Shown here piece after piece: positions 4,915-23,724 of a stretch of DNA of 32,000 bases. The translations under genes and the position numbers were made by a program. The stretch lies in NCBI GenBank assembly GCA_000967895.1, contig FO203512.1:537582-569581 (forward strand), read 5' to 3'. The notes beneath the pieces were generated by a model. The model ran no database searches. It had not been told where the DNA came from and saw only the letters and a program-made list of their open reading frames with translations. Every line of letters starts with the position of its first letter. The stretch's first letter is position 1. This stretch comes from Oleispira antarctica RB-8. GTDB taxonomy: Bacteria > Pseudomonadota > Gammaproteobacteria > Pseudomonadales > Oceanobacteraceae.

Positions 4915-4925
4915 GGACTTAATCG

Positions 4926-6830
4926 GTGTTTAAGCGTTTTTGTAAAATTGCACTGTTGGCTATGACTATTGCCATCAGTATTCCTGCGTTGACTGTTCAT
5001 GCAGAAGATCAGAACTGGCAAGTAAATCTTAAAGATGCCGATATATCGGCGTTCATTGGACAGATTGCTGATATCACTGGTAAGAGCTTTGTTATTGACC
5101 CTAGGGTCAAAGGTAAGGTAACGGTGGTTTCAACTGAAACCATGAATACCGAAGCCGTTTATGAACTTTTCTTATCGGTGTTAAAAGTCCACGGCTATGC
5201 GGCGGTGCCAGCGGGTGATGTTGTCATGGTCGTGCAGCAAAACTCGGTTAAGCAGCAAGGTCGAGATTTAGAAGAGAAGTTCAAAAAACAAAGCCAAGAA
5301 ATGGTCACAAAAGTGATCATGATTAAAAATACACCGGCTTTGGATTTAGTGCCTATCTTGCGCCCGCTGGTGGCTAAATATGGCCACCTCGCGGGGGTGA
5401 AATCTGCCAATGCATTGATCATTTCCGATCATGCTTCAAACATCAATCGTATTGAACAGATTATCGATCGTCTTGATAAGTCTGGCTCTGAAGAGTTAGA
5501 AGTTATTCAATTGAAAGAAGCATGGGTTGGGAACGTTGTGACTATGTTGCAAAGTCTAGATCCCGATAAAGTGGCTCAAGGTAAAGGCTCTTCGAGTGGT
5601 GGTGCTGGTAGTATTCGAGTGGTTGCCGATGAGCGCAGCAATCGATTAATTATTAAGGGTGAGAAGACATCGCGAGAACGTATTCGTATATTGATTCAAC
5701 AGCTAGATAAGCCTTCTTATTTCTCAGGTAGCACCAAGGTTATTCGCTTGAAATACGCGGATGCCAAGAAGTTAGCAGAATTATTGAAAGGGGTTATGTC
5801 AGAATCGGACTCCGGTAGTAAAGATGCCAATAAAGCGAAAGGCAAAGCGAGTATTCATGCTGATGAAGAACTGAACGCTCTTGTGGTACGTGCTGAACCT
5901 TCTATTTTAAAAGAAATTGATGAAATTATTCATGAGCTGGATGTTCGTCGAGCTCAGGTACTAATTGAATCAGCTATTGTTGAAGTGACGGGTGAGGTGA
6001 GCGACTCTTTAGGTTTCCAATGGGCCTTGGGTGATACCGATAACCCTGTTGCGGGTACAAACTTTGGTAATGCTGGGCAGTCTTTATCAACGCTTGCCGC
6101 AGGTGTAGCGTCAGGCACTCCGACCTTGAGTAACGGTTTAACGTTAGGTGGCTTTAAAGAAACGAATGGTCAGGTAGATTTTGGTGTCATTCTACAAGCG
6201 TTAGAAAGTCAGAGTAATACTAACTTACTATCGACTCCTAGTATTATGACGCTTGATAACCAAGAAGCAGAAATTATTGTGGGCCAGAATGTTCCTTTCT
6301 TAACAGGTTCTACTTCGTCAAGTGCGAACAGCAATCCGTTTACCACCATTTCACGTGAAGATATTGGTGTAACGCTGAAAATTAAGCCGCATATCCATGA
6401 AGGTAATGAATTGCGTCTAGAGGTCGAGGTAAGCGCTGAGTCTGTGGCTAATACCACCGTTCAGGGACAGGCGGATTTGATTACCAATAAGCGTTCATTG
6501 AAAACAATGATTTTAGCCGCTGATGAAGAAACAATTGTATTAGGTGGTTTGATCAGTGACGACATTGTTGAAACAGAAAGTAAGGTTCCGCTGTTGGGTG
6601 ACATACCATTATTAGGTTGGTTATTTAAAAGTAAAAGTACACAACATGTGAAGCGTAATTTGATGGTTTTTTTACGCCCAACGATTGTATTGGATAAGCA
6701 AAAAGCGACGACTTTAACTCAAGACAAATACAATGGTGTTTGGGAGTTTGATTTGTCAGGTGATTTAGAAGTGGATGATGTGAATAGACGCATGAGTCGT
6801 TTATTTAAAGGTGTTCAACTGAGTAACTAA
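4926..6830 (+). CDS. gspD: Type II secretion system secretin GspD
   Basis: Signal peptide followed by the N0 domain (QVNLKDADISAFIGQIADITGKSFVIDPRVKGKVTVVS). The secretin core is present (NLLSTPSIMTLDNQEAEIIVGQNVPF...VPLLGDIPLLGWLFKS). Confidence 0.95.
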   Translation: MFKRFCKIALLAMTIAISIPALTVHAEDQNWQVNLKDADISAFIGQIADITGKSFVIDPRVKGKVTVVSTETMNTEAVYELFLSVLKVHGYAAVPAGDVVMVVQQNSVKQQGRDLEEKFKKQSQEMVTKVIMIKNTPALDLVPILRPLVAKYGHLAGVKSANALIISDHASNINRIEQIIDRLDKSGSEELEVIQLKEAWVGNVVTMLQSLDPDKVAQGKGSSSGGAGSIRVVADERSNRLIIKGEKTSRERIRILIQQLDKPSYFSGSTKVIRLKYADAKKLAELLKGVMSESDSGSKDANKAKGKASIHADEELNALVVRAEPSILKEIDEIIHELDVRRAQVLIESAIVEVTGEVSDSLGFQWALGDTDNPVAGTNFGNAGQSLSTLAAGVASGTPTLSNGLTLGGFKETNGQVDFGVILQALESQSNTNLLSTPSIMTLDNQEAEIIVGQNVPFLTGSTSSSANSNPFTTISREDIGVTLKIKPHIHEGNELRLEVEVSAESVANTTVQGQADLITNKRSLKTMILAADEETIVLGGLISDDIVETESKVPLLGDIPLLGWLFKSKSTQHVKRNLMVFLRPTIVLDKQKATTLTQDKYNGVWEFDLSGDLEVDDVNRRMSRLFKGVQLSN

Positions 6831-8211: not shown

Positions 8212-8488
8212 GATTTTCTCTCCAATATTAGCTTGAATGATACGGATAACTGGTAAGGTTCAAATGGGAGTCGAAGCCTTACTTCCGCAATCTGGGGTGA
8301 ATAATAGCACACCTTAAATTATCCGCTACGCATGTAAAATGTGTGGTTTTAGTTTGATCACCTTATCCGTTATACTAGCGCCACTTAAATACCTAAGAAA
8401 ATACCTTAAAAGGCCTGTTTATAAAGCGCTAGGGTGTGAGTACAAGGTACTAATAATCATAATAATGAGCCAGATACTCGGGGCAACT

Positions 8489-9316
8489 ATGTCAAACGAT
8501 CAAGAATCCATACCAAAGATGCAAGCATCACAAGAAGACATGGCGATGCGCCAAAAGCAGTTACAGCAACGTCGTTTAGCAGCGCAGCGTGCAGCAAAGG
8601 CAAATCCATCGGCCGCACAGATAGCGGCACCAGCGCCTAAGCAAACACTTGCTATTATTGCTTTAGTATTGAGTTTGGGGATGGGCGGCTTTGCAGCTTT
8701 TTTGTTTATACAACTACAGGAAGCTAATGCACAGTTGGGGAAAACAGAAGATATTTTAAATGGGCACGCAACCAATTTAGCAGTCTTAAATGATAAATTA
8801 TCGGCTTCCGATGAAAATTCAAATCTATCGGTTGGCGCATTGAAAGTATTATTAAAAGATAACGCCAAAGAAATTCGCAAGCTTTGGGATCTTACGAACA
8901 AAGCGAACAAACCTAACATTGAGAAAAATACTAAAGCGATTTCTAGTGTAAAAGCATCGGTGGTTAAGGTTGATAAAAAAGCGACAGGTATCGATAAAAA
9001 AGTTGTATCGGCCAATAGCAATATTACTGGCAACAAAAACAGCATCGCCGCGCTAAAAACCAGCTTAGCCAATAGCCAAAAATCGTTAGAAACAAAGCTC
9101 GCTGATCTTAAGTCATCCGTTACAGGTTTACCTGAAGCGACTGAAAAGCGTATTGGTAATAATGAGCAGTCAATTCGTTCTATCGATGCGACCCGTAAGA
9201 AGTTAAACAGCTCTATGGCGGAAGTTGAATCTCAGTTTAATGAAATGAAATTAGAAATTGAAGATATTCAAATTCGTTTAGACCGTATGCAAAATGCGAT
9301 GACGGGTACTCTTTAG
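8489..9316 (+). CDS. Bitopic membrane protein with long A/K/N/S-rich coiled-coil ectodomain, unknown function
   Basis: The ORF is open from 8339, but the first 42-50 codons look non-coding. Plausible starts are ATG 8465 or ATG 8489 (MSNDQES...). It has a TM helix (LAIIALVLSLGMGGFAAFLFI) followed by a heptad-rich region. The 190-aa antisense ORF 8500..9072 is rejected. Confidence 0.55.
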   Translation: MSNDQESIPKMQASQEDMAMRQKQLQQRRLAAQRAAKANPSAAQIAAPAPKQTLAIIALVLSLGMGGFAAFLFIQLQEANAQLGKTEDILNGHATNLAVLNDKLSASDENSNLSVGALKVLLKDNAKEIRKLWDLTNKANKPNIEKNTKAISSVKASVVKVDKKATGIDKKVVSANSNITGNKNSIAALKTSLANSQKSLETKLADLKSSVTGLPEATEKRIGNNEQSIRSIDATRKKLNSSMAEVESQFNEMKLEIEDIQIRLDRMQNAMTGTL

Positions 9317-9320
9317 TTCA

Positions 9321-10220
9321 TTGTCTTATTTAGCTAACTCACAAGGTGTGCTCGCTATATTGCGGCATGCCTTGGAACTTCCTCCGCTTCAATTCTCAGA
9401 TATAAAAATCTTTCGTCAGCATTTAGCCTCCGGTTTTCAACGTTATTCTACAGTACAGAATGCTTTTTATTTAGGCGCGCAAGCGGCAACTTCAGGCATG
9501 GCTTTCTTAGCGGGCTATCAGAATGCGATACGGTGTTTGGATGTGAATTGTCCCAGCGATGAATTGGCTGCATTTTGTGTATCTGAAAAAGGGGTTAAGA
9601 AACCCTGGGATATGGCGACCCGACTATCGGTATCTGATGACGGTTATCTACTCGATGGAAAAAAAGGCTATGTGATGCTTTTACCAGGCGAGTTAGATCG
9701 TATGTATGTGGTTGCAAAAAACGACAAAGATCAGCTTGGTTGTCTTTATGTGCTGGCTAATACAGCCGGTATTTCAACGACCGATGCTTTAGCGGCTCCT
9801 TTTGTAGAAGATATTCCTCATAGTGGAGTGTGTTTTGATAAGGTAAAAATCCCGGCTGATCAGGTATTCGATATAGATGGCCATCAACAAGCAAATAAGC
9901 CGTTTCGTTATTGGGAAGATGTGCACGTTGCGCTGTCTATGATGGGGTGGATGTCACGAGAACTGTTAGGGAGGCAGCAATCATTCGATGGATTGGATGA
10001 TATGGTACAACTCATCTGTCAGTTAATAGAACAGTATGAAGAGCACCCAGACTATTATTGTCTTGAGAGTCTTTTGTTATTAGATAAAAGCCATGAAATC
10101 ATGGATAACTACTCCCAAAACTTATCAGAAGAATCGAAAATTCTATGGCTGAAAGACAGGTTGTTATTACAGATGGGGCAGAAAATGCGCCACCTTGTGA
10201 GAGCTAAAATGGTTAATTAA
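9321..10220 (+). CDS. Hypothetical protein with degenerate acyl-CoA dehydrogenase-like middle and C-terminal regions
   Basis: TTG start 5 nt after the preceding stop. The segment ...FCVSEKG..WDMATRLSVSDDGYLLDGKKGYV resembles the ACAD beta-barrel motif (TEP..GSD...T.A...gd.y.lnG.K.wi). Key residues differ, so the assignment is weak. Confidence 0.45.
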   Translation: MSYLANSQGVLAILRHALELPPLQFSDIKIFRQHLASGFQRYSTVQNAFYLGAQAATSGMAFLAGYQNAIRCLDVNCPSDELAAFCVSEKGVKKPWDMATRLSVSDDGYLLDGKKGYVMLLPGELDRMYVVAKNDKDQLGCLYVLANTAGISTTDALAAPFVEDIPHSGVCFDKVKIPADQVFDIDGHQQANKPFRYWEDVHVALSMMGWMSRELLGRQQSFDGLDDMVQLICQLIEQYEEHPDYYCLESLLLLDKSHEIMDNYSQNLSEESKILWLKDRLLLQMGQKMRHLVRAKMVN

Positions 10221-10256: not shown

Positions 10257-10688
10257 TCAGCGAGCAATAACATTTGTTATAACACTGGGTAATCTTAAGC
10301 CTGAGTTGTTAGTGGAGGGCGCACCTGTATTGATTGGTAGAATGCGATTCTCTGTTACACCTTCAGCATTAATTTCATATTGTTGCTGGTTAACAGAATC
10401 ATCCGCTACATTGCCGGGGCTTTCACCTTGGCTTTCAATACTTGTAATGCTCATCTCTTGATTTAAAAGTCTAGGGATATCAAGGCTTTGCGTCGTAGAT
10501 CGATTATAACGTTTAGCCGTGCTGTAGTCGTAGTGATGAGGATTTCTTTTGGCCTCATTAATCGCAGTGAAAATATCATTGTCATAATATTTATCATGAG
10601 GATTTATAGCCCAACTCAATGAAGGAGCGAGGGCTGTGATTATTACGGCTAATGCTTGGGTAACGGAAATCTTCATTAACTTCACCAT
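10257..10688 (-). CDS. Secreted hypothetical protein, tandem paralogue A
   Basis: Signal peptide (MKISVTQALAVIITALAPSLSWA). It shares a conserved N-terminal block with the upstream gene: DKYYDNDIFTAINEAKRNP...YNRSTTQSLDIPRLLNQEMS. Confidence 0.6.
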   Translation of the reverse strand: MVKLMKISVTQALAVIITALAPSLSWAINPHDKYYDNDIFTAINEAKRNPHHYDYSTAKRYNRSTTQSLDIPRLLNQEMSITSIESQGESPGNVADDSVNQQQYEINAEGVTENRILPINTGAPSTNNSGLRLPSVITNVIAR

Positions 10689-10692
10689 TAGA

Positions 10693-11232
10693 TCAAGGTT
10701 CTGGAGTTATATAGGCTCTTGAGCTGGCTTCTGAGCGAATATTTGTAGCGCTTCCAGAGAAGCTCTCGGTACGATACTCAACTTTATCCACCTTATAGAC
10801 CGCGGGTGAGAGCTCAGACGTTTCTGTAGAAGGCTGAATTGAAATGTCGAATCTATTGCTTTTAGTATCGGCTAAGAAGTCCAGTTCAGAGTCATCTTGT
10901 TTATTCGCAATAACATCTTCTGCATTCAGCTCCAAAGGCGATGTTCGCACAGGAGCAACGTCTCCAGGACCTGCGGCAGTAGCGTCGAGAGCGCCATCGA
11001 CAATTTCAGAAGACATTTCAGTATTCATTAATTTGGGGAAATCAAAGCTTTTTGATGTCGTTCGATTATACCAACGATTGCCCACGTAGGTTTCATTACT
11101 GGGGCTATTTTCAGCTTCTTTAACGGCTGCATCAATGTCATTCGAGTAATAAGGGTTGTCGCTTGATTGCGCGTTCGCAAGCATGACGCCACTAATTAAT
11201 AAGAATGAAGTGATAAAGAGTGGGGTTTTCAT
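10693..11232 (-). CDS. Secreted hypothetical protein, tandem paralogue B
   Basis: I place the start at ATG 11232, where GGGAG lies 8 nt upstream and the signal peptide MKTPLFITSFLLISGVMLANA follows. The ORF-track start at 11394 would overlap the divergent gene. Shared block: NPYYSNDIDAAVKEAENSP...YNRTTSKSFDFPKLMNTEMS. Confidence 0.6.
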   Translation of the reverse strand: MKTPLFITSFLLISGVMLANAQSSDNPYYSNDIDAAVKEAENSPSNETYVGNRWYNRTTSKSFDFPKLMNTEMSSEIVDGALDATAAGPGDVAPVRTSPLELNAEDVIANKQDDSELDFLADTKSNRFDISIQPSTETSELSPAVYKVDKVEYRTESFSGSATNIRSEASSRAYITPEP

Positions 11233-11246
11233 TTTCAAACTCCCTA

Positions 11247-11276
11247 TTTTTTGTTGTTTTTTGTTATTTTTTGTTA
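11247..11276. repeat. Three tandem 10-bp units TTTTTTGTT(G/A): helically phased T6/A6 tracts
   Basis: ttttttgttg (11247-56), ttttttgtta (11257-66), ttttttgtta (11267-76). They sit in the divergent intergenic region, immediately upstream of the RBS of the minus-strand gene. Confidence 0.8.
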
Positions 11277-11341
11277 TGCATGGCATCATACAAGTGACAA
11301 CAAAATGATGCAAATGATCCCTTTGTGGATAGGACATAATA

Positions 11342-12001
11342 ATGATAAAAATCGGATTATTGCTGTTATCGGTATTCATGTTACCGAGCTGCACAATTTA
11401 CCAGTCTATTGGTCATAGTTTCGGAAGTTTTGTTTCTACCCCTAATGGACAAGATTTTCAACCTGTCGGCTATCGCTGGGATTATGAACATACCGCTTTA
11501 GTTTATGTGTATCGCCCAGCGTCGACTTGGGCGAATGACGAACTAGAATCGCCGAGCTTTTATTTGAATGGCGAGCGCTTATTCAATATTAAAGGCAATG
11601 GCTATACTTGGTATGAATTAAAACCAGGGACTTATGAAATTAAAATTCGTCGACCTCTATTGGGGCTAGAAGGCATTGAAGTAACTAATGCCGTCGATTT
11701 CACTTTAAGAATGGTCACAGAATTAGACTTAAATGCGAAAGCCGGCAGCGTTTATTACCTTCGATATTCTGAAGTTGATAAAGATGCGGCTAAGTTTGAG
11801 AATATGACTTTCCATGAAAATCCTTTGCAGTTAGTTACGCCAGAAGTGGCATTGGCTGAGATTCAGCAAACAAAAATGTTGGATGAAGGGCGAGGCTTAA
11901 TAGCAGATATCCCCGAAGAGGAAGTAAAAATAGCCGCACCTGCAAAAGAGAAGCCTCAGCAAGAGGAAAGCCCAGGAACGAAAAGTTGGAATCCTTTCTA
12001 G
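11342..12001 (+). CDS. Lipoprotein, DUF2846-like
   Basis: Lipobox LLSVFMLPS-C-TIY. The core VYVYRPAS...FYLNGERLFNIKGNGYTWYELKPGTYEIKI fits the DUF2846 pattern as I remember it. The C-terminal tail is E/K/P-rich. Confidence 0.6.
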   Translation: MIKIGLLLLSVFMLPSCTIYQSIGHSFGSFVSTPNGQDFQPVGYRWDYEHTALVYVYRPASTWANDELESPSFYLNGERLFNIKGNGYTWYELKPGTYEIKIRRPLLGLEGIEVTNAVDFTLRMVTELDLNAKAGSVYYLRYSEVDKDAAKFENMTFHENPLQLVTPEVALAEIQQTKMLDEGRGLIADIPEEEVKIAAPAKEKPQQEESPGTKSWNPF

Positions 12002-14175: not shown

Positions 14176-14523
14176 TCAATGGCTAATCCCAATGTAGTCG
14201 ACCAGCATTGAGCGTCCTTCACAGCCTAATGATTTAATACTCACTTTATGCTTAAAATTAAGCGCCGCGAGTACTAACTGAAACTTTCTCTTTGCTACTT
14301 CTTGATTGTCACTATAAGACCGATACCTGTTTGACAATTTCCCGCCGCACTTATGTGATTTTAGTGACGTAAAGAAATCAAAGCCAGCCTGAGTATCGTC
14401 CTCTATTTGGTATAAAGAAATAATCAATAAGTTATTTTTTACATTATTCTCTTCGGCAAAAGAGGTTTGAATACCCCCTAGAACGAATGAAAATAAAAAA
14501 GCTACCTGAATCAATGACTTCAT
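14176..14523 (-). CDS. Small secreted hypothetical protein (two Cys), divergent from the rotor-stator operon
   Basis: Start at ATG 14523, preceded by the strong RBS AAGGAGGG. Signal peptide MKSLIQVAFLFSFVLGGIQTSFA. The mature part is about 90 aa with 2 Cys. Confidence 0.55.
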   Translation of the reverse strand: MKSLIQVAFLFSFVLGGIQTSFAEENNVKNNLLIISLYQIEDDTQAGFDFFTSLKSHKCGGKLSNRYRSYSDNQEVAKRKFQLVLAALNFKHKVSIKSLGCEGRSMLVDYIGISH

Positions 14524-14632
14524 AAACCCTCCTTTAGATAAAAGTATAGCCAATTTTTTAAAACCATCATCAAACCTGAATATATGAACTATGCTGACAT
14601 TAGAAATCTGATAAAAACATCAGGGTTAAGGA

Positions 14633-15700
14633 ATGTTGATGGTCGTTAAAAATTTAAGAATATTATGCATCGGTTTATTAATGTCACTGAATTATGTTCA
14701 GGCGGCAGAACCTGATTTACCGCACATGGCTGAGCCAGCACCGACTCTCTATACAGGCTTTGGCCAATTATTAGATGACGATAAAACGCTGGTCTTAGAA
14801 GAATTAATGGACTTAGATCAAAATATTCAGCGTATCGCACTTTATCATAATGGCGATCGCTTGCACCGCTTAATCCCCAAGCAAGTGCACCAAATGATCG
14901 AGAATAAACTCATGCGTCGTTTAATTGCGAATGGCCGTTTTGATGTCATTCAGTGTCTCGAATGTCGAACGACTAAAGTAGTGATGGCTGTTGATGAGTT
15001 GAAAATATCACAAGCTGCTGAAAATAATCAGCAATTAAGAGCGCTATCAAAAAAAGTGCGTGCAGATGCCTTTATGTTCTGGAGTGCATCTGTACATGAA
15101 AATAAATTTACTATTAATTTGCGCTTAGTCGATGGTAAAAATAATGAGCTGCTATGGCTGAAAGAATATTCTAAAAAGACCACTCAAGAAGCGGAAGAAA
15201 ATGATTTTGATAGAGTTCAATATGAATTCATTGTCGGCGCTTGGGGGGTGAAAGGAAAACGTGAAAGTACCGTTGCCGCCGGGAGTACTGAACTAAAGGG
15301 AGCAACAGTTTTTGGTATACGTCGTAGAGAAAGCACAGAGTTAAATGAAGATATTGAATATACCTTAGGTTTTGAATACTTCACAAACTATTCGTCTGAA
15401 GAACTATTTGATCTCAGTGGTTATAATCTTGAAGGTCGAGTTATTGCAGATATTCCTGCCTTAGATGATGTGCTGGATACGAAAGTTTATCTTGGCATAG
15501 GGCAGTCATTTTTTAATGATGCAAACAGTCTGATCTTTCGTTTTGGCTTTGAATTTCCCTTCTTTAAAGACGGATTTATGGATTTTGGTGTGATGTATAT
15601 GCGAGAAGCCAATGTTAAGTGGAAGACCGATGCTGCGTTTGAAGAAATAGGCACTTTCGGTGGTGCAAGTTATGACTTAACACTCGGTGTGCGCTTCTAA
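14633..15700 (+). CDS. Putative outer-membrane protein: TolB-N/CsgG/FlgO-like N-domain plus C-terminal beta-barrel (operon gene 1)
   Basis: Signal peptide ...LLMSLNYVQA/AEP. The alternative start ATG 14639 sits 6 nt after AAGGA. The N-domain pattern LRALSKKVRADAFMFWSASVHENKFTINLRLVDGKNNELLWLKEY matches the ...A..lg..lgaD.vl.G.v......i..rLvd..tge.lW motif of TolB-N-like periplasmic domains. The C-terminal ~170 aa has alternating hydrophobic strands ending ...YDLTLGVRF (terminal Phe). Confidence 0.65.
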   Translation: MLMVVKNLRILCIGLLMSLNYVQAAEPDLPHMAEPAPTLYTGFGQLLDDDKTLVLEELMDLDQNIQRIALYHNGDRLHRLIPKQVHQMIENKLMRRLIANGRFDVIQCLECRTTKVVMAVDELKISQAAENNQQLRALSKKVRADAFMFWSASVHENKFTINLRLVDGKNNELLWLKEYSKKTTQEAEENDFDRVQYEFIVGAWGVKGKRESTVAAGSTELKGATVFGIRRRESTELNEDIEYTLGFEYFTNYSSEELFDLSGYNLEGRVIADIPALDDVLDTKVYLGIGQSFFNDANSLIFRFGFEFPFFKDGFMDFGVMYMREANVKWKTDAAFEEIGTFGGASYDLTLGVRF

Positions 15701-15709
15701 GGACGAATT

Positions 15710-16432
15710 ATGAAACAGTTAATAATTGCTTTATTGATAGTATTAATCAGTGCATGTACGCATGAAAGAACAAATAGAATGCTTACCCAGTATGGTGATA
15801 GTCAGCCTGATTTATTGGGAATTGGCGAACAGAGTACTGAAGCAACTGCTGAAATCTCGCTTGAGACCATAGAGAAGCGTAAGCAAGTTGCTGATTTAGC
15901 AAAAAAGAATCATGGTTTAATGCACATCCATCGCTACGGCCCTGGGTTTGATGTCTTAATGACATTAGATACGGGGGATAGCGATGTTAGTTTTAGTATG
16001 GCGCTGCCTTCAACACCGGGAAGTCTGCAAGACTCACTTCGAAGTGATTTACAAAAAAGTGCAGAAGAAATTGCTGAACAAAACAAACAAGTTCTTGAAA
16101 GCTTGGATGACGATAAAGCTGAACTTCATCATGAAGAATTAGATGAGCGCAGTGAATTAATTGAGCAAAAGAAAATTCAAGACTTTCAAGCTTCAACAAA
16201 ACACATCTTTAGTGCGCAGTCTTTATTTTATAAAAAGCAATATTGGCAATCATTGGATGAAACTAATAAAGCGCTAGAGCTAGTTCCAGACTCTGCTCAA
16301 GCGCATGCTTTGAAAGGCAGCATTTATTACAAAATGGGATTAAGTGCTGAAGCCAAAGCTAGTTGGCAGCAAGCGTTAGAAATAGATCCAACGATGGAAC
16401 AAGTCAAAACCAGTTTGACGCGCTTGAAGTAG
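15710..16432 (+). CDS. TPR-containing lipoprotein (operon gene 2)
   Basis: Lipobox LIVLISA-C-THE. An acidic, coiled middle region is followed by C-terminal TPR-like repeats (YWQSLDETNKALELVPDSAQAHALKGSIYYKMGLSAEAKASWQQALEIDP). It starts 9 nt after gene 1, with AAGGA overlapping the preceding stop. Confidence 0.7.
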   Translation: MKQLIIALLIVLISACTHERTNRMLTQYGDSQPDLLGIGEQSTEATAEISLETIEKRKQVADLAKKNHGLMHIHRYGPGFDVLMTLDTGDSDVSFSMALPSTPGSLQDSLRSDLQKSAEEIAEQNKQVLESLDDDKAELHHEELDERSELIEQKKIQDFQASTKHIFSAQSLFYKKQYWQSLDETNKALELVPDSAQAHALKGSIYYKMGLSAEAKASWQQALEIDPTMEQVKTSLTRLK

Positions 16433-16443: not shown

Positions 16444-18369
16444 ATGAAATTATTGATACAAGGTATCCTCAATCTGTGTCTGATCTGTGCAGTAGCTTAT
16501 CCTATTGTGAATGCTACGGCTGAGACTGGGAAAACCTTTGAAGTACCGGCTAAAAAAGATGAAATCGAAGAGGTGCGTTTTAAAGATGAAATGGAAGCGC
16601 GATTGAATCGAGACTTACAGGCATATCTTGGGAATAATCGCTTTATCATTCATGTTGAAGCCGAATTGAAAAAAACACGTACTGTTGTAAAAGAACGATC
16701 TAATACCGCGGCTAAGAATATTCCAGAACGCCCAGTATTTACTTCACAACCTTTGCCAGTATCAATCGATAATCGAACAAGAGAAATCGAAGAAACACTC
16801 CCTGGGCTTCCGACCAGTGATTTACCCATTTTCGAAGATAACAGTGTGGAAGTCGATGCGTTGAAAGGCCGTGTTCAGCAATTAGAGAATGAGCGGCAGC
16901 AAGCTCTGGGATATGCTGAAAAATTACGCCAAGAAGCTGAAAAGCAGATAGAAAAAATTAAAGAAAAAACGCTAGGTTATAGAAATTCTATTAATAAACT
17001 CACTATAACCGTGGTATTAGATAAAAGTTTAAAAGATGAGCAAATAGAATTCATTCGTAATTTGATTACTCGTAAAGCGCGCTTAGATGAATTACGAGGA
17101 GACTCTTTAAGCATTGTTCGTACAGAGTTTAAAGACGTTAAGCAAGATGTTGTACTGGATGGTTGGCAACAATACCAAGGCTGGATCATGTTAGCTTGTT
17201 TTGGCTTTATGATGTTGTTATTACTGCTGGTGCTCTATTTATTTAATAAGCGCTTGAGTGAGAGTCTAAAAGAGAATCAGCGAAGAAGTGATAACTTTGA
17301 TAGCCTGACTGTTCCGGCTGCCGTTGAAATGGCTCCTATTGATCATTCGGAAAATGAGGGTAATGATAAGCGTCGTCAGCTTAATGAAATGCGCCAAGAG
17401 CTCGTGACGATTGGCTTAGGCCAGCCACAGCTATTTCAACAGCGTATTAACGAACAGTTAAATAGCGGAAATAGTCAAAATGTAGCGGCCTTATATGAAG
17501 TATTAGGAAAGGGGTTGTTTCGCAGTCTTTGCCCAAAAATATTAAATTCTGATGCTGAAACTTTAGCAGACCAAGTCGCACAACAGCCTTTAGATAATGA
17601 ACAAAAACTTACTTATTTAAATAATCTGCGTCACGAGATGTTAAAAGCGTTAAGTGATGATGAAACGGGTAATGCTCCCTTTGCTTTTTTGGAAAAATTA
17701 AATGATTCACAAGTTTTATATTTAATAAAAGAAGAAGAAACGCGGATCAAAGCGTTGGTTTTATCGCAAGTTCCTGCAAAAAGAGCGGCCAGTTTAGTGC
17801 AGCGACTAGAGGGGCGTGAGCAATCTGCGGTAGCGTATGAATTGGGTGAGTTTGAAACCTTACCCGTATCAACCTTCAAAGACGTTGCGGATCGTTTAGC
17901 ACAAAAATCTTTGAATGTTCCAAGCTTTGAGAATGTATCTGCGAATGGTCTGTCAGTATTAATTAATATGCTAGACACCATGAGCAGTGGTGAAGAAACT
18001 CGTTTACTTAAAACATTAAAAGCGGATAAACCTGAAACCTATTATCGTTTGCGCCAAGTATATTATACCTATGCTGATTTGATGCGAACCCCTGAGCGAG
18101 TGATTGCGAATGAGCTTAGAGATGTTGATCGTACGGTGATGGCGTTATCGCTATGCCATACTACAACCGAATTCAAACGACATGTGTTAACGGGGTTGCC
18201 AGCCAAGCTACGATCTTCTGTCATTGCAGAATTGAAAATACAAGAAGGCCAAGCAGCACAAGAGCAAACTGAGCAGGCTAGAAATCAAGTTGTGGCTAAG
18301 ATGCGTGAAGTATTAAAAGCAGGCCGCTTTTCTATGGAAGAATTGATCGCTGTTGCGAATCCAAGTTAA
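16444..18369 (+). CDS. Bitopic FliF-like (periplasmic ring-building motifs) / FliG-like (cytoplasmic N-M-C domains) fusion protein (operon gene 3)
   Basis: I place the start at ATG 16444, with GGGGAACGG upstream and an N-terminal hydrophobic segment. The ORF-track start at 16363 would overlap gene 2. Periplasmic part: MEARLNRDLQAYLGNNRFIIHVEAEL and INKLTITVVLDKSL..EQIEFIRNLITRKARLDELRGDSLSIVRTEF, with the RGD-x-v-x-V...F motif placed before the TM as in FliF. TM about aa 247-267 (nt 17182-17244). Cytoplasmic part: AALYEVLGKGLFRSLCPKILNSDAETLADQVAQ (FliG-N like), EEETRIKALVLSQVPAKRAASLVQRLEGREQSAVAYELGEFETLP (FliG-M like, at the EHPQ position), and VYYTYADL...VIANELRDVD..VMALSL...LPAKLRSSVIAEL....ARNQVVAKMREVLKAGRF (FliG-C like). 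Confidence 0.7.
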   Translation: MKLLIQGILNLCLICAVAYPIVNATAETGKTFEVPAKKDEIEEVRFKDEMEARLNRDLQAYLGNNRFIIHVEAELKKTRTVVKERSNTAAKNIPERPVFTSQPLPVSIDNRTREIEETLPGLPTSDLPIFEDNSVEVDALKGRVQQLENERQQALGYAEKLRQEAEKQIEKIKEKTLGYRNSINKLTITVVLDKSLKDEQIEFIRNLITRKARLDELRGDSLSIVRTEFKDVKQDVVLDGWQQYQGWIMLACFGFMMLLLLLVLYLFNKRLSESLKENQRRSDNFDSLTVPAAVEMAPIDHSENEGNDKRRQLNEMRQELVTIGLGQPQLFQQRINEQLNSGNSQNVAALYEVLGKGLFRSLCPKILNSDAETLADQVAQQPLDNEQKLTYLNNLRHEMLKALSDDETGNAPFAFLEKLNDSQVLYLIKEEETRIKALVLSQVPAKRAASLVQRLEGREQSAVAYELGEFETLPVSTFKDVADRLAQKSLNVPSFENVSANGLSVLINMLDTMSSGEETRLLKTLKADKPETYYRLRQVYYTYADLMRTPERVIANELRDVDRTVMALSLCHTTTEFKRHVLTGLPAKLRSSVIAELKIQEGQAAQEQTEQARNQVVAKMREVLKAGRFSMEELIAVANPS

Positions 18370-18378: not shown

Positions 18379-19182
18379 ATGAATCGATTTTCGTTTAGTA
18401 CACTGGTTGGGATAACGGTCGCTATTAGCCTTTTCATGTACGCCATTGTTTCGAGCACCAATAACTATTTAATGTTTATTAGTGTCTCAAGCTTTGCTTT
18501 GGTGGCGGGAAGCACGTTTGCAGCCTCTTTGATTAGCTATACCACAGCAGACGTCCTTACCGCGATTAAAGCATTATTTGAGACCTTGTTTCATGCGCCG
18601 ACCAGTTCGAAACATTTACGCGGCCATGTAGAGCGCTTTATTGAATGGGGAAGTATTTATCGTCAACAAGGTATTGCGGGATTAGAGTCTTCGCTAACGG
18701 ACAAAGAGCGCAGAGATCCATTTTTAGCACACGGTATGGAGCTATTAAGCAGTGGTTATAAAAACCATGACATTCGTACTATTTTAACCGATGACATGGA
18801 CGCTTTCTGGCAACGAATGACTGTCGAGTCAAAAGTATTAAATACGATGGCTGTTTATGCTCCCGGCTTTGGTATGGTTGGTACCATCATCGGTTTGATT
18901 ATTATGCTCGATAATATGAATGGCGATATGGCCGCCTTAGGTAAAGGTTTGGCATTGGCATTAATTACAACGCTATATGGCGTTGTATTGGCCAACATTT
19001 TCTTTAGACCTGCTGCCAACCAAGTGACCGAAAAACAAGAATCATTATACTTTCGTGATCAAATGATTGTTGAAGGGTTTGTATTGTTAGCCGAGAAGCG
19101 TGACGCATTATTTATGCAAGATCGGTTGAATGCTTACCTCAAACCAAGTGCACGTTATCAGCCAATAGAAGAAGAGCTGTAA
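18379..19182 (+). CDS. MotA/PomA-family stator A subunit (operon gene 4)
   Basis: The 267-aa, 4-TM layout aligns by eye with V. alginolyticus PomA: APGFGMVGTIIGLIIMLDNM...LALALITTLYGVVLANIFFRPAANQV versus APAMGMIGTLVGLVAMLSNM...MAVALLTTLYGAILSNMVFFPIADKL. The cytoplasmic loop YRQQGIAGLE aligns with PomA ARKGGFLALE. Confidence 0.9.
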   Translation: MNRFSFSTLVGITVAISLFMYAIVSSTNNYLMFISVSSFALVAGSTFAASLISYTTADVLTAIKALFETLFHAPTSSKHLRGHVERFIEWGSIYRQQGIAGLESSLTDKERRDPFLAHGMELLSSGYKNHDIRTILTDDMDAFWQRMTVESKVLNTMAVYAPGFGMVGTIIGLIIMLDNMNGDMAALGKGLALALITTLYGVVLANIFFRPAANQVTEKQESLYFRDQMIVEGFVLLAEKRDALFMQDRLNAYLKPSARYQPIEEEL

Positions 19183-19862
19183 TGACAGAGTCGGTTTCTA
19201 ATAAACACAGGGGGCTAAGACGTCGTCGCCCCAATTTTGAGGATTCATCCAGCTCTTGGTTAATTACCTACTCTGATGCAGTTACTTTGCTGCTCGCTTT
19301 TTTTGTAATGATATTATCTGTCTCAGATTTGAATCAGGGAAAAGTGGAAGCGCTAAAAGAAGGTCTAACAGAAGCGATGACAGGAGAGGCGCCTCCTACA
19401 CCATTTACCGATATTAAAAATGGCTTAGAGCAATTAATTGAGCAGGATGGCTTGCAAGATCAAGTCTCTGTTACTCTAGATAAAGAAGGTGTGAAAATAG
19501 AGTTTTCAAATGTTTCATTATATCAATCAGGTTCGGCCGATATTAAAATTGATGCGATTAAAACACTGAATAAAGTAACTCAAGTTATACTAAAAACCAG
19601 CCATAAGACTCACATGGTCGAAGTGGGTGGGCATACTGATAATGTTCCAATTCATACCGAAAAATTCCCATCAAATTGGGAGTTGTCGTCTGCGCGAGCA
19701 ACCAATGTTGTTAAGTACTTATTAGCAGAAGGAATCGAAAAAGAACGACTAAAAGCGGCAGGTTACGCCGATAGCCGACCTAAAGAAAACAGCCTTAATT
19801 TACCCCTCAATCAGCAGCGTGAAGATAATCGACGCGTGGTTATTTTTGTAAAGCGTTACTAG
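19182..19862 (+). CDS. MotB/PomB-family stator B subunit with OmpA-like peptidoglycan-binding domain (operon gene 5)
   Basis: TAATG overlap with gene 4. The TM segment WLITYSDAVTLLLAFFVMIL carries the invariant Asp. The C-terminus GGHTDNVP...SNWELSSARATNVVKYL...NRRVVIFV is an OmpA/MotB PG-binding motif. Confidence 0.9.
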   Translation: MTESVSNKHRGLRRRRPNFEDSSSSWLITYSDAVTLLLAFFVMILSVSDLNQGKVEALKEGLTEAMTGEAPPTPFTDIKNGLEQLIEQDGLQDQVSVTLDKEGVKIEFSNVSLYQSGSADIKIDAIKTLNKVTQVILKTSHKTHMVEVGGHTDNVPIHTEKFPSNWELSSARATNVVKYLLAEGIEKERLKAAGYADSRPKENSLNLPLNQQREDNRRVVIFVKRY

Positions 19863-19903
19863 CGTTACATCATCAAACCCATCACTCAAGATCTTAATTC
19901 ATA

Positions 19904-19923
19904 GATGACATGAAAGTGTCATC
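19904..19923 (+). terminator. Hairpin downstream of the motB-like gene (possible weak terminator)
   Basis: Stem GATGACA (19904-10), loop TGAAAG, stem TGTCATC (19917-23). It is followed by an AT-rich stretch but not a clean T-run, and it overlaps the Pho-box-like element. Confidence 0.35.
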
Positions 19924-19948
19924 TAATGTTATTAAATCTGTCACTTTC
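19916..19948 (+). promoter_or_regulatory. Pho-box-like element (three 11-bp phased units) upstream of the phoX-like gene
   Basis: GTGTCAT-CTAA | TGTTATT-AAAT | CTGTCAC-TTTC, compared with the E. coli PhoB consensus CTGTCAT-AAAA-CTGTCAT. A perfect TATAAT lies at 19981-19986, 20 nt before the ATG. Confidence 0.35.
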
Positions 19949-20005: not shown

Positions 20006-21913
20006 ATGGAACTCCTTCAGAAAAACGCTTTATACAAGGCGGTATTACTCGCGATGACAACGAGTATGTTAGTTGCTTGCGGCGGAGATTCGGATGGCGA
20101 CGATGGTATAAATGGTGCTAGCGGTGCTAACGGTACTAATGGTGCTAACGGTACTAATGGTGCAGACGGTCAAAATGCGGGAGGACCTGTTTCAGTAATT
20201 GACCCAACAAGCCTTGTTTTTACCGGTGTAAAAGCCCCAATGACTGATGCTGAAAAACGTACGGTTTTAGCCTCTGATGCCATGATTGACGGTAAGGTTT
20301 ATGGCGGTGCTTATAAAACATTAGTACGTTCTGGTGAGGATGTTAATGGTATCTACTTTGGTCAATTAGTTGATGAGTCGGGTAGCGTATTAAAAGCGGG
20401 TGATGGATCTATTAAAATCTCTGATTCAAATGAATTTACCTCATTATTACCGATCGGCAATAAATTATTCTCAGTTTCTCAGTTTGAAAGTAAGCCAGGT
20501 GCAATGTTCTTGATGGAATTAAATCAAGATGCTGTCGATGGTGAATTAACTGTAAAAAACATGAGCCAAATAGACCAGTCTGGCATTGATGGAGGCTGGG
20601 TTCATTGCGCGGCATCCGTAACCCCTTGGACAACGCATTTAGCGTCAGAAGAATATGAGCCGAATGCTCGTTCTCTGGTTACAGGGTCTGATGCTCAATC
20701 CGATGGCTATACAAGTGGCATGTTGGATTATTACGCCGATATTAACCAATGGAATCCGTATTTCTATGGTTGGAATATTGAAGTTGTTGTCTCAGAAGAT
20801 GCTCAAGTAACAAGTACAAAGCATTATGCAATGGGGCGTTTAGCATTTGAACTTTCTTATGTGATGCCTGATAAAAAAACAACCTATATGACGGATGATG
20901 GAACGAACGTTGGCTTATATATGTTCGTTGCTGATACAGCTGAAGATCTGAGCGCAGGCACGGCTTATGCCGCTAAATGGAATCAAACGTCTGCCGATGG
21001 CATGGGCGCGGCTGACTTAGAATGGATTTCTTTAGGTCATGCGACAGATGCTGAGATTAAAGATTATGTGAAAGGCACCAACGGTAAAACTGTTGCAACT
21101 TTCGCAGATATCTTCACGACGGCAGATGCGACAGGATCGACATGTCCTGATACTTTTACTGCGGTTAATGCCGGTGGTAAAGGACTTGAGTGTTTGAAAG
21201 TGAATGCAGGTATGGAAAAAGCGGCTTCTCGTTTAGAGACACGTCGTTATGCTGCATTAATGGGTGCAACGACAGAATTCAGAAAAGAAGAAGGCGTTAC
21301 TTTCGATAGTAAGCGTAACAAGCTGTATGTTGCTATGTCATCTATTGAAAAAGGCATGATGGATAATGACTCAAATGATTTTGGTGGGCCAAATCACATT
21401 GCACTTAATACCTTAAACAAATGCGGTGGCGTATACGAATTAGACCTTGGAGCAAATGCTGGAATGGGGTCCGACTTTGTTGCACAAAACATGAAGGGCC
21501 TGATTGCTGGTCGCCCAGTCGATGGCAGTGGTTATGGTACAACAACCGAGCCACAAGCTGTTGGTTATGAGAATGGTAATAAGTGTCACATTGATGGAAT
21601 ATCAAACCCAGATAACGTTACGTATATGACGGGCTACGATAAGTTAATTGTCGGTGAAGATACGGGTTCTGGTCACCAGAATGATGTTATTTGGGCTTAT
21701 GACTTTACCTCAGAAGATCTTGTTCGAATTCAAACCACACCTTATGGTTCTGAAACAACGTCTCCTTACTGGTATCCAAATATCAATGGCTGGGCGTACA
21801 TGACTTCCGTTATTCAGCATCCTTATGGTGAGTCTGATGGTGGTGAGAATACTGGGGCAGGAGAAGCGCGTGCTTACACGGGTTATGTCGGTCCTTTCCC
21901 CGCTGTAAACTAA
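20006..21913 (+). CDS. PhoX/DUF839-family phosphatase-like lipoprotein with collagen-like Gly-X-Y linker
   Basis: Lipobox TSMLVA-C-GGD, then 8 GXY triplets. The core ...GGWVHCAASVTPWTTHLASEEYEPNA resembles the PhoX ...NCAGG.TPWGT.LTcEEN motif. The C-terminus ...GEDTGSGHQNDVIWAYD...GSETTSPYWYPNINGWAYMTSVIQHP resembles the PhoX end (E.tG..fsPdg.tlFvniQHP). Confidence 0.65.
   Translation: MELLQKNALYKAVLLAMTTSMLVACGGDSDGDDGINGASGANGTNGANGTNGADGQNAGGPVSVIDPTSLVFTGVKAPMTDAEKRTVLASDAMIDGKVYGGAYKTLVRSGEDVNGIYFGQLVDESGSVLKAGDGSIKISDSNEFTSLLPIGNKLFSVSQFESKPGAMFLMELNQDAVDGELTVKNMSQIDQSGIDGGWVHCAASVTPWTTHLASEEYEPNARSLVTGSDAQSDGYTSGMLDYYADINQWNPYFYGWNIEVVVSEDAQVTSTKHYAMGRLAFELSYVMPDKKTTYMTDDGTNVGLYMFVADTAEDLSAGTAYAAKWNQTSADGMGAADLEWISLGHATDAEIKDYVKGTNGKTVATFADIFTTADATGSTCPDTFTAVNAGGKGLECLKVNAGMEKAASRLETRRYAALMGATTEFRKEEGVTFDSKRNKLYVAMSSIEKGMMDNDSNDFGGPNHIALNTLNKCGGVYELDLGANAGMGSDFVAQNMKGLIAGRPVDGSGYGTTTEPQAVGYENGNKCHIDGISNPDNVTYMTGYDKLIVGEDTGSGHQNDVIWAYDFTSEDLVRIQTTPYGSETTSPYWYPNINGWAYMTSVIQHPYGESDGGENTGAGEARAYTGYVGPFPAVN
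20105..20176 (+). repeat. In-frame GGT-NNN-NNN triplet repeat with a perfect 18-bp tandem duplication
   Basis: ggtgctaacggtactaat occurs at 20123-20140 and again at 20141-20158, flanked by degenerate units. The region encodes GINGASGANGTNGANGTNGADGQN. Confidence 0.85.
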
Positions 21914-21984: not shown

Positions 21985-23724
21985 ATGTTTCGTTCTATTA
22001 ATTGTACTATTAATCGTACTATGCCTTGTCTGATAGTTTCTTGCTGTGTAGTTTTATGCCTTACGGCTTGTGATTTTTCTCAAGCTGATGAGCCTTCTCA
22101 ATCGAATGAGCTTTTCCAATCTAATAGTTCAGCAATAGATAAAAGTGCATTAACCAGTGATGTACTCAACAACCCCACTGCTTATATTCCCCCGCAGTGT
22201 TATACAAAAACTACCGCCACAGATGGCGCGATCCATAATCCTTGTTATGTTTGTCACACGGCCAGTAAAGCGCCCAATTTTTTAAATGATACCGATGTTC
22301 AGCAAGAACTTGTATTTCCTGAACCGGGCGTGATTAATCGTTGGGACAATATGTTTAAAGATTACAGTAAGCAAGTAGCCAAGATTAGCGATGAAACAAT
22401 ACTAAAGTATGTCCGCCAAGATAATTATAAAAACAGTCAAAATGAATTAATTTTAGCGGATAAATTACAAGCTTTACCTGCAGAGTGGGATAGAAATAAA
22501 AACGGCCAATGGGATGGGTTCATTCCCGACAGTTATTACAATTTTAATGACAAAGGATTTGATGTCGCCCCTAGTGGTGAATTAACAGGTTGGCGTGTCT
22601 TTGCTTATTATCCTTTTTTAGGCACCTTTATGCCTGTTAATGGTTCCACTGACGATGTCATGATTCGTTTACCAGAGATATTTAGGCAAGATGATAAGGG
22701 CATATTTGATGAGCGCGTTTATGAACTCAATCTATCTATTATCGAATCACTGCTAAAACAAAAAGATATTAATATTGCTGAAGTGGATGAAAATTTATAT
22801 CAAGTAGATTTGAACAAAGATGGCAAGTTGTCACACACAAGTACTATTCGTTTTTCATGGTCTCCAAACGATAATATTTTTATGAGCTACGTTGGCTTGG
22901 CTAAAGCTAAGCTGGCGGCTAAAGAAATAAATCTAGCAGCAGGACTTTACCCCGTTGGCACAGAGTTTCTTCACAGTGTTCGTTACATCGATGAAAAAGA
23001 CGGCAATACAGCAATGGCTGCTAGGATGAAAGAGTTGCGTTATGCCCGAAAAGAAAACTGGCGTAATTATTACCAGCTAGAACGCATTGCGATGAAAGAA
23101 GTAAAAGAACGCCATGATTTTCCCGATAGAACCAAGCAAGTTATCGGCAATATGGAAGTTGGATTAACCGTAGCGCAAGGTTGGACGTATCAAGGTTTTA
23201 TTGAAGATAAACAGGGCGACCTTAGACCCCAATCTTATGAAGAAAGTTATTTTTGTGTCGGTTGTCATAGTGGTACCGGAGCCACCGCAGATACCACTTT
23301 CTCGTTTTCGCGAAAATTTGATAGTGACAGTTTTAAGCAAGGTTGGTACAGCTGGCTTGAAAAAGACTTAGCTGGAATTAGCGATCCATTACGAAATGAT
23401 GGCTTAGGTGAGTATGGATATTATTTAACTCATAACCCGAGTGGTAATGAATACCGCAATAACGATGCGGTCAAAAATAAGTTTTATGATAAGCAGGGTA
23501 ATAAAAAAATAGGTGCTTTTAATGATCTGAAAACAGATATCAGTACCTTGTTAATGCCTGACGTTAAGCACGCGCTGATAATGAATAAAGCCTACAAGGT
23601 TATTGTTGATGAACAAAGTTATAGCCAAGGTCGAGATGGCCATGTTTCTGAGATTGTTAATATTCACAAAGAAGTCGAGTTAGGGCAGGATACCGGCATT
23701 GTTGATGTGCTTAATTTCCACTAG
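21985..23724 (+). CDS. Putative dihaem c-type cytochrome lipoprotein, unknown function
   Basis: Lipobox VVLCLTA-C-DFS, where Asp at +2 is the inner-membrane retention signal by the E. coli rule. There are two CxxCH motifs: CYVCH (nt 22243-22257) and CVGCH (nt 23254-23268). Length is 579 aa and no family name is recognised. Confidence 0.6.
   Translation: MFRSINCTINRTMPCLIVSCCVVLCLTACDFSQADEPSQSNELFQSNSSAIDKSALTSDVLNNPTAYIPPQCYTKTTATDGAIHNPCYVCHTASKAPNFLNDTDVQQELVFPEPGVINRWDNMFKDYSKQVAKISDETILKYVRQDNYKNSQNELILADKLQALPAEWDRNKNGQWDGFIPDSYYNFNDKGFDVAPSGELTGWRVFAYYPFLGTFMPVNGSTDDVMIRLPEIFRQDDKGIFDERVYELNLSIIESLLKQKDINIAEVDENLYQVDLNKDGKLSHTSTIRFSWSPNDNIFMSYVGLAKAKLAAKEINLAAGLYPVGTEFLHSVRYIDEKDGNTAMAARMKELRYARKENWRNYYQLERIAMKEVKERHDFPDRTKQVIGNMEVGLTVAQGWTYQGFIEDKQGDLRPQSYEESYFCVGCHSGTGATADTTFSFSRKFDSDSFKQGWYSWLEKDLAGISDPLRNDGLGEYGYYLTHNPSGNEYRNNDAVKNKFYDKQGNKKIGAFNDLKTDISTLLMPDVKHALIMNKAYKVIVDEQSYSQGRDGHVSEIVNIHKEVELGQDTGIVDVLNFH

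Follow-up and report, generated by a model that had tools for sequence, protein, structure and literature searches.

Within a 32,000-nucleotide stretch of the Oleispira antarctica RB-8 genome (contig FO203512.1, positions 537,582 to 569,581; hereafter, the window), a single open reading frame (ORF) encodes a natural fusion of the flagellar proteins FliF and FliG. The ORF is a genuine, selected single chain of 641 amino acids (aa) composed of a FliF ring-building motif module (RBM3), one transmembrane helix, and what appears to be a complete FliG with N-terminal, middle, and C-terminal domains. Such a fusion had been proposed in an initial annotation made from the letters of the window; Pfam, a profile search of PDB sequences, and a fold search with an AlphaFold2 (AF2) model all supported it. 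The fusion is the third gene of a five-gene module that also encodes a predicted outer-membrane protein, a TPR lipoprotein, and a MotA/MotB-like stator pair, and these five genes are conserved over three divergent clades. From its domains, key residues, and gene context, we infer that the module forms a ring, pairs rotor with stator, rotates, is coupled to the outer membrane, and is independent of the flagellum. We put the probability at roughly 0.6 that it is a self-contained rotor–stator machine that is driven by ions, does not switch, is coupled to the outer membrane, and probably works without a flagellum.

The fusion gene and its parts, all on the + strand, are as follows.

16444..18369, +: gene 3, FliF–FliG fusion, 641 aa (Pfam, profile, and fold evidence)
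16444..16521, +: probable cleavable signal peptide, aa 1-26, ending ...VNATA/E with the putative cut at the slash (hydropathy, A-x-A site)
16531..17139, +: periplasmic FliF RBM3-like domain, aa 30-232, with the RGD motif at its end (Pfam, hidden Markov model [HMM] alignment, Foldseek)
17176..17256, +: transmembrane helix, ~aa 245-271, N-out/C-in (Kyte-Doolittle peak 2.79, basic residues after it, AF2 helix 245-281)
17356..17673, +: diverged FliG N-terminal domain, aa 305-410 (profile alignment, Foldseek)
17674..17943, +: FliG middle domain, aa 411-500, with EEETR at the EHPQR position (Pfam, alignment to E. coli FliG)
17944..18348, +: FliG C-terminal domain, aa 501-635 (Pfam FliG_C; TM-score 0.84-0.87 to 8ucs_H/1qc7)
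18196-18237, +: torque helix LPAKLRSSVIAELK (alignment to E. coli FliG MSQRAADILRDDL)

The program-made ORF list begins the fusion at a TTG (16363), but the ATG at 16444 was judged the better start because an AGGGGA ribosome-binding site precedes it, the stop codon of the upstream gene is 11 nt away, and the initiator Met is the same in all homologues. A Kyte-Doolittle scan detected two hydrophobic segments, aa 1-26 and aa 244-271, with the basic residues NKRLSESLKENQRR following the second, and it bore out the topology initially described: an N-terminal hydrophobic segment, ~220 periplasmic residues, a transmembrane helix, and ~370 cytoplasmic residues. The N-terminal segment had been left as either a signal or a first transmembrane helix (TM1). 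Because it ends in NATA/E, its sequence makes a cleaved signal peptide more likely and TM1 less so.

The periplasmic part was recognizable as FliF by both sequence and fold. Pfam YscJ_FliF_C, PF08345, matched aa 58-229 with 38.1 bits (gathering cutoff, 23.8), and a family profile (A1, built from 14 sequences) aligned its positions 43-325 with residues 235-534 of Salmonella FliF in the search of PDB sequences (6scn, E 1e-8). An HMM alignment paired this part with E. coli FliF 233-526, including the two segments before the transmembrane helix that had been read as ring-building motifs: LRGDSLSIVRTEF pairs with KRGDSLNVVNSPF, and LTITVVLD with LSVAVVVN. The domain has the αββαβ order of a ring-building motif (α40-62, β67-83, β174-193, α198-212, β221-227), split between β1 and β2, the site of the FliF β-collar, by a 90-aa insert. 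This insert consists of a disordered stretch with an LPGLP motif (aa 119-123, invariant in alignment A1) and then a long helix predicted by AF2 at aa 134-171, where a central coiled coil had been noticed earlier. Foldseek matched the AF2 model to the FliF RBM3/collar structures 8ftf, 6sd1, and 8zdt in the PDB (E ~3e-4), and the RGD motif of FliF was kept in all loci covering the position in a 43-locus comparison. PF01514, the N-terminal module of YscJ/FliF, gave no match on the fusion, whose periplasmic part starts at the RBM3 helix. RBM1 and RBM2 are thus absent, and only the RBM3 end of FliF is retained, in agreement with the initial view that the FliF part is much shortened.

The cytoplasmic part aligns with all three FliG domains, as had been judged by eye. 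Pfam FliG_M, PF14841, matched aa 422-492 (51.8 bits; cutoff, 25) and FliG_C, PF01706, matched aa 524-630 (52.6 bits; cutoff, 23.3), and the possibility raised at the outset, that this part is unrelated to FliG or resembles only MgtE-N-like repeats with no FliG-C match, was not borne out. Positions 312-632 of the family profile aligned with residues 6-326 of Aquifex aeolicus FliG in the PDB sequences (3hjl, full length, E 3e-20), which spans the N, M, and C domains, and Foldseek aligned 318 columns of the AF2 model to the same structure. The N-terminal domain follows a disordered linker (aa 274-304); Pfam FliG_N was significant only in some relatives and not in the fusion itself. The top Foldseek matches of the model were full-length FliG and the FliG chains of the Salmonella C-ring (E 3e-9 to 1e-7). 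The FliG fold was matched at a root-mean-square deviation (rmsd) of 1.5-1.8 Å; 1lkv, 3hjl, 8ucs_H, and 1qc7 were among the structures matched, and the C-domain model alone gave TM-scores of 0.84 (rmsd 1.5 Å) against MotAB-bound FliG (8ucs_H) and 0.87 against 1qc7. Profile alignment and structural superposition, both suggested in the initial annotation, thus recovered the FliG and the FliF RBM3 families.

The motifs by which FliG communicates with its partners were retained to different extents. On E. coli FliG, EEET(R) of the fusion falls at the EHPQ(I) position and YYTYADL at the MFLFENL position, as the initial annotation had placed them. Across the clades the EHPQR position is occupied by DEDxR, HEDxR, or GESDE/DEQDG, and the FliM-binding motif is lost. 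The Gly-Gly hinge is lost as well; MGGV of E. coli FliG is aligned to ANGL/ADGL, with one Gly kept. The proposed torque-like helix, LPAKLRSSVIAELK on E. coli MSQRAADILRDDL, was said to retain some charged positions, and among five only the equivalents of R281 and D289 are kept. The R281 equivalent, K588, is invariant in the family alignment and basic (K or R) at all covered loci of the 43-locus comparison, and the D289 equivalent, E596, is E or D in the family alignment. The stator-facing pairs are R90/D288-D289 and E98/R281 (PMC12505986); they are kept in part, because the R281 and D289 equivalents remain but the D288 equivalent is variable.

Selection on the fusion was estimated from Oleispira orthologues. 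The dN/dS ratio was ~0.02-0.04 across all domains, an approximate value since dS was saturated; FliG_M and FliG_C were under the strongest constraint and the transmembrane/linker region under the weakest. The fusion fell well below the NCBIfam equivalog cutoffs for its two parent families, with 58.6 bits for FliG (TIGR00207; cutoff, 226.7) and 17.5 bits for FliF (TIGR00206; cutoff, 129.75). The component families are all known, and by these cutoffs the fusion would be classed as neither FliG nor FliF. Such scores, together with weak MgtE_N matches in some relatives, might be expected of an assembly or frameshift fusion of fliF/fliG remnants, of a decaying gene, or of a mislabelled MgtE-N-like helical-repeat protein, but that explanation is effectively refuted by the same intact frame in >100 clusters at 90% identity and 164 at 50% identity, by a dN/dS of ~0.03, and by FliG_C and FliG_M scores above the Pfam thresholds with a FliG fold at rmsd 1.5-1.8 Å.

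The other members of the operon and its likely terminator are the following.

14633..15700, +: gene 1, predicted outer-membrane protein, 355 aa (AF2 model, Foldseek, weak Pfam)
15710..16432, +: gene 2, TPR lipoprotein, 240 aa (Pfam TPR_1, TPR_2, TPR_11; lipobox)
18379..19182, +: gene 4, flagellar-type MotA/PomA/MotP-like stator A, 267 aa (Pfam MotA_ExbB, 90.8 bits)
19182..19862, +: gene 5, MotB-like stator B, 226 aa (Pfam MotB_plug, 53.9 bits; OmpA, 57.9 bits)
19902..19925, +: hairpin with a 10-bp stem, 40 nt past the motB stop, likely operon terminator

Gaps between the operon genes are 9-11 nt, and the motB start overlaps the motA stop (TAATG). The two stator genes are of flagellar type. Gene 4 scored E 2e-48 to NCBIfam MotP and E 7e-37 to PomA, versus E 4e-3 to ExbB/TolQ, and the equivalents of MotA R90, E98, P173, and P222 were all found in it. 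The essential Asp (D32) of gene 5 lies in a transmembrane helix, and the protein also has a plug and a peptidoglycan-binding domain of the OmpA type. Both proteins were far under their NCBIfam equivalog cutoffs; for gene 4 the scores were 164.6 bits against 394 for MotP and 127.1 against 341 for PomA. At the position of E. coli MotB V43, where the residue has been associated with the choice of ion by Bacillus MotB/MotS (Val with H+, Leu with Na+, Met with K+), the transmembrane segment of gene 5 (aa 26-48) has a Met (…AFFVMILS…) after the FF pair.

The two remaining products are envelope proteins. Gene 2 has a LISAC lipobox (Thr at +2), an acidic coiled-coil-like middle, and a C-terminal TPR. 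Gene 1, which over 99% of its length is 100% identical to a 'Conserved hypothetical protein' of RB-8, has a signal peptide, an N-terminal α/β domain of the FlgO/FlgT_M/LpoB/TolB-N type, and a small C-terminal β-barrel ending in ...LTLGVRF. Its AF2 model (pLDDT 71.9) matched NspA/OmpA/OmpW/Ail barrels, the LpoB C-domain, and TolB in Foldseek; a search against PDB sequences gave no match. Sub-threshold Pfam matches to FlgO and FlgT_M were found in 15/16 and 7/16 of its orthologues, respectively.

No flagellar genes were present in the window, the rest of which is housekeeping (type II secretion system [T2SS] C/D/N, Maf, SodB, fumarase, FBPase, Mpl, and others), and no genes for FliM/FliN, export, rod, hook, filament, MotY, FlgP, or P/L-rings accompanied the module. 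Neither a σ28 nor a σ54 consensus was found upstream of the operon in any of 37 loci. Simple scans for σ70 promoters and terminators were uninformative except for the hairpin after motB. Within the 79-nt spacer upstream of gene 1 (14554-14632), a block, …CTGAATAT.TGAACTATGCTGACAT…, is conserved in Oleispira loci ~25-50 nt before the gene 1 start; it does not fit the consensus of σ28 or that of σ54 and may be the operon promoter or an operator. Beyond this spacer lies a small divergent ORF (14176-14553, −) beginning MKSLIQ... and encoding a secreted protein with a signal peptide (...TSFA/EE, with the cut at the slash), ~92 mature residues, and 2 Cys. It had no Pfam match. By tblastn it was kept beside the module in most Oceanospirillales loci (33-73% identity) but not in those of the Fibrobacterota-linked clade, and it may be either an additional component specific to the lineage or a mere neighbour.

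The five genes travel together over large distances. Scanning of genomes turned up 37 loci, distributed over Oleispira, Thalassolituus, Bermanella, Oceanobacter, Bacterioplanoides, Gynuella, and Saccharospirillaceae; across these Oceanospirillales loci the identity of the fusion fell to 34%, and the five genes were syntenic in all 37 wherever the contig reached. A Fibrobacterota-linked clade of five loci, so assigned by the labels Fibrobacterales/Fibrobacteres or, at one locus, by a Fib_succ_major domain protein nearby, carried these five genes as well, arranged as fusion, barrel protein, TPR lipoprotein, MotA, MotB. A third, metagenomic clade had the same five genes in the Oleispira order, and the gene order of the window was also present on metagenomic contigs of 75-82 kb. 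Orthologues of gene 1 were found in the distant modules (E 2e-9, E 1e-84), and gene 2 was homologous to their lipoproteins (E 1e-14, E 1e-12). Beyond these five genes, the clades had no neighbours in common.

A profile search of 1.84 billion cluster representatives returned 164 clusters (50% identity) with E<1e-30. Among the best 150 of the 50%-identity clusters, ~130 had the arrangement of signal peptide or transmembrane segment, ~200 periplasmic aa, transmembrane helix, and FliG N, M, and C domains, and the intact fusion frame recurred in >100 clusters at 90% identity from independent assemblies. The organism labels of the distant clusters were limited to Fibrobacterales/Fibrobacteres bacterium, Gammaproteobacteria bacterium, and Saccharospirillaceae. 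The MotB Asp was kept in 43/43 loci, and the MotA R90/E98 equivalents were R/E in 36/38 gammaproteobacterial loci, the exceptions being L023 (Q at R90) and L034 (S at E98).

Two loci deserve comment on other grounds. The near-identical Oleispira contig L048 differs from L047 and the window by three genes added between fumarase and pterin dehydratase (L048 3982-5001), including one for a 339-aa Sel1-repeat protein, a strain-level variation just upstream of the module. Locus L028 (JBLHVV010000051.1), from a metagenome-assembled genome (MAG) labelled Crocinitomicaceae (Bacteroidota), carries a Bermanella-type module in the same fumarase/pterin-dehydratase synteny; its label is most likely a binning error and not an occurrence in Bacteroidota.

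On the reading we favor, the RBM3-like domain would drive oligomerisation into an S-ring-like periplasmic ring, which would set one covalently linked FliG per subunit and thereby place the C-domains in a circle on the cytoplasmic face of the inner membrane. The downstream MotA and MotB would be the dedicated stator, with MotB anchored to peptidoglycan and ions conducted via its conserved Asp. The cytoplasmic loop of MotA, through its R90 and E98 equivalents, would push on the torque helix of the fusion at the R281 and D289 equivalents, and the ring would turn, or at least bear force, in the membrane. This rotor would be unidirectional and CheY-blind: with no FliM/FliN genes, no EHPQR, and no Gly-Gly hinge, neither direction switching nor a response to CheY is expected. 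Because RBM1/2 and export-gate, rod, and hook genes are missing, the fusion cannot build or carry an axial filament. An output to the outer membrane is suggested instead by the co-conservation of the lipoprotein and the predicted β-barrel. The TPR lipoprotein and the outer-membrane β-barrel protein would probably receive the work of the periplasmic ring, and the five proteins together would make up an envelope-spanning machine. The output might be surface motility or adhesion, remodelling of the outer membrane, or secretion. Attachment to insoluble substrates is common to the identified hosts, on alkane droplets in the Oceanospirillales and on polysaccharide fibres in the Fibrobacterota, a connection that is speculation only.

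A covalent junction between FliF and FliG is mechanically acceptable, because in engineered FliF–FliG fusions rings still assemble and motility is supported (PMC10941966). The strongest form of the proposal is a rotary ring that stands by itself, is driven by ions, lacks rod, export gate, and switch, and has FliG and MotAB coupled directly to outer-membrane partners. It would be one more type of rotary machine in the bacterial envelope, and we advance it tentatively, at somewhat below even odds.

Several observations weigh against the favored reading. The torque helix has not kept three of its five charges: an invariant Cys stands at the K264 position, Ala or a variable residue at that of D288, and the charge of R297 is lost. 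The MotA R90/E98 equivalents are not conserved in the Fibrobacterota-linked clade, at a distance where the alignment is less reliable. The RBM3 fold match is modest (TM-score 0.4-0.5 in Foldseek), and the AF2 monomer of the whole fusion has a pLDDT of 72.9 and a pTM of 0.29. The proposal gives no account of how torque would be transferred from a rod-less ring to the outer membrane. The identified gammaproteobacterial hosts are all from motile genera, so that a flagellum-linked role is possible, and the MotAB pair of the module may be the MotAB counted for the flagellum in the genome paper.

The last two points bear on whether the module serves the canonical polar flagellum. O. antarctica has a single polar flagellum and a complete array of flagellar and chemotaxis genes at 1272898-1348300 of the genome, and its genome paper counts 'two stator systems MotAB and PomAB' (PMC3759055). 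The MotAB pair of the module would then be a second stator, like MotAB beside PomAB in Shewanella or MotCD in Pseudomonas, and the fusion a decoy, a reservoir, a regulator, or an extra ring that docks stators or co-assembles with the MS-ring. The count of two stator systems (PMC3759055), the flagellated genera to which the named gammaproteobacterial hosts all belong, the flagellar-type MotA and MotB with their FliG-contact residues kept, and the weak FlgO/FlgT likeness of gene 1 are all in keeping with this. In Vibrio, FlgO and FlgT belong to the outer rings of the flagellum. We nevertheless consider such an accessory role unlikely. The five genes are always together and apart from flagellar genes, the 37 loci lack a σ28/σ54 consensus upstream, and without RBM1/2 and the FliM-binding motif the fusion cannot substitute for either FliF or FliG. 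Its presence in Fibrobacterota-labelled MAGs may count against this role as well. Moreover, the FliG part scored better to the Aquifex (75 bits) and Thermotoga (71 bits) proteins than to Vibrio FliG (49 bits) in the PDB profile search, so it was not recently copied from a flagellar gene of the Gammaproteobacteria.

A second explanation keeps the stator but gives up rotation. The FliG ring would recruit and activate MotAB as a non-rotating force transducer or scaffold, and a local pull of the Tol-Pal or ExbBD-TonB kind on the lipoprotein and the β-barrel would serve outer-membrane maintenance or uptake. The gene set does resemble the Tol-Pal layout, with an inner-membrane motor, a coiled-coil/TPR lipoprotein, and a barrel bearing a TolB-N/LpoB-like domain; the module has no axial or rod component to receive torque, and the torque-helix charges are kept only in part. 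This possibility also seems improbable to us, given that the FliG M-C architecture and the basic R281 equivalent are strongly constrained, that the ring-building RBM3 domain is kept, and that the stator has a plug and a flagellar-type MotA loop and not the cytoplasmic domain of an ExbB/TolQ-type protein.

Zorya defence (ZorAB) was also tried as an identity for the stator pair and was rejected, since PADLOC gave only E 2e-3 (15 bits) for ZorA and found no other Zor protein. The module and Zorya have in common a small operon, separate from flagellar loci, with a MotAB-like pair; the module differs in having no ZorA tail, ZorC, ZorD, or ZorE, and its MotA matches ZorA at E 2e-3 compared with 1e-48 for flagellar MotP.

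Compared with the flagellar FliF/FliG/MotAB core, the module shares an RBM3-type domain, an RGD just before the transmembrane helix, and the N-M-C order of FliG. It also shares a basic residue at R281 and an acidic one at D289, MotA R90/E98/P173/P222, and a MotB with Asp32, plug, and peptidoglycan-binding domain. It departs from that core in joining FliF and FliG in one chain, in lacking RBM1, RBM2, and probably TM1, and in the insert of LPGLP and long helix; in addition, it brings its own outer-membrane barrel and TPR lipoprotein and has no FliM/FliN, export, or axial genes. The FliF MS-ring consists of ~33-34 subunits.

Covalent FliF–FliG junctions occur as well in engineered and spontaneous fusions of Salmonella and Vibrio, where they form rings (PMC10941966; PMC6079021; 8z4d/8z4g), and a Salmonella FliF–FliG fusion still supports flagellation and motility (PMC10941966). 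Those laboratory fusions join a full-length FliF (~560-580 aa) to FliG, for 945 aa in 8z4d, inside a complete flagellum, whereas the chain described here is natural, 641 aa long, RBM3-only, and encoded outside flagellar genes.

The module also resembles GldLM/PorLM of the type IX secretion system (T9SS), Tol-Pal (TolQRA-TolB-Pal-CpoB), ExbBD-TonB, and Agl-Glt, in which a small operon combines an inner-membrane ion motor with periplasmic or outer-membrane partners, and it shares with them partners of the same kind, a TPR protein and a TolB-N/LpoB-fold domain. The motors of those systems exert their action by way of a long arm in the periplasm, which belongs to the B-type or TonB/TolA/GldM subunit, and have no FliG; the stator of the module, by contrast, is flagellar-type, with a plug and a MotP/PomA-like loop, and its predicted target is a cytoplasmic FliG ring. 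Some likeness to the outer rings of Vibrio (the FlgO/FlgP/FlgT H-ring and the MotX/MotY T-ring) is seen in the weak FlgO/FlgT_M matches of gene 1 and in the repeat-containing partner beside the stator, MotX being a Sel1/TPR-like protein. Here, however, the gene 1 matches are sub-threshold, the protein has its own β-barrel, and MotY, FlgP, and P/L-ring genes are missing.

Within the full-text literature searched we found only laboratory FliF–FliG fusions and no description of the module, an absence that does not prove it to be undescribed. The module is not mentioned in a phylogeny of MotAB (FIT vs GIT), and a proteomic study of Fibrobacter (PMC6851124) lists MotA/ExbB-family proteins, none identifiable as belonging to it. 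What appears to be new is that the fusion is natural, that its FliF part is cut down to RBM3, and, most of all, that its five-gene context is conserved across phyla and free of the flagellum.

Several other features of the window were recorded. Downstream of the module, the gene for a PhoX-like protein of 635 aa (20006-21913, +; Pfam PhoX, E 6e-20) precedes that for a protein of 579 aa whose only match, a faint one, is to Cytochrome_P460 (21985-23724, +). This pair stays joined even where it has been moved or inverted elsewhere, for example at L010 and L013, and exists in two divergent versions (~27-30% vs ~70-85% identity). A partial type II secretion cluster at 3199-6830 (+) encodes a GspN-like protein (T2SSN), GspC (T2SSC plus PDZ), and the secretin GspD; before it lies a gene for a 455-aa protein with a DsbA-like domain confined to the C-terminal 190 residues. 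Four successive ORFs at 8339-10220 (+) and 10257-11394 (−), of 325, 299, 143, and 233 aa, have no Pfam family, and the first has a tropomyosin-like coiled-coil match, sub-threshold only. The 233-aa minus-strand ORF overlaps the start of a DUF2846 gene (11342-12001) by ~50 nt, and because of this overlap one of the two starts is probably miscalled.

The module might have arisen by streamlining of the flagellar motor, or it might be a surviving relative of a rotor–stator core older than the parts for export and the axis. In the profile search its FliG is no nearer to gammaproteobacterial FliG than to that of Aquifex or Thermotoga. The module bears on the origin of the flagellum, and in particular on the long-standing question of whether a rotor–stator pair can exist and be of use where secretion and axial parts are missing. 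Should the proposed working of the module prove right, it would be the smallest known system with a complete flagellar-type torque generator, made of one rotor, two stator, and two envelope proteins. It would also offer a minimal and genetically simple platform on which to reconstitute and image FliG–MotAB torque without ~30 other flagellar proteins, and its covalent 1:1 ratio of FliF to FliG would remove the stoichiometry problem. For annotation, the 'second stator system' counted in genomes like that of O. antarctica may be non-flagellar. For the bacteria themselves, if the proposal is true, it would mean a new function for flagellar-type stators, outside organelles of motility, in ecologically important oil- and polymer-degrading bacteria, including the oil-degrading marine Oceanospirillales.

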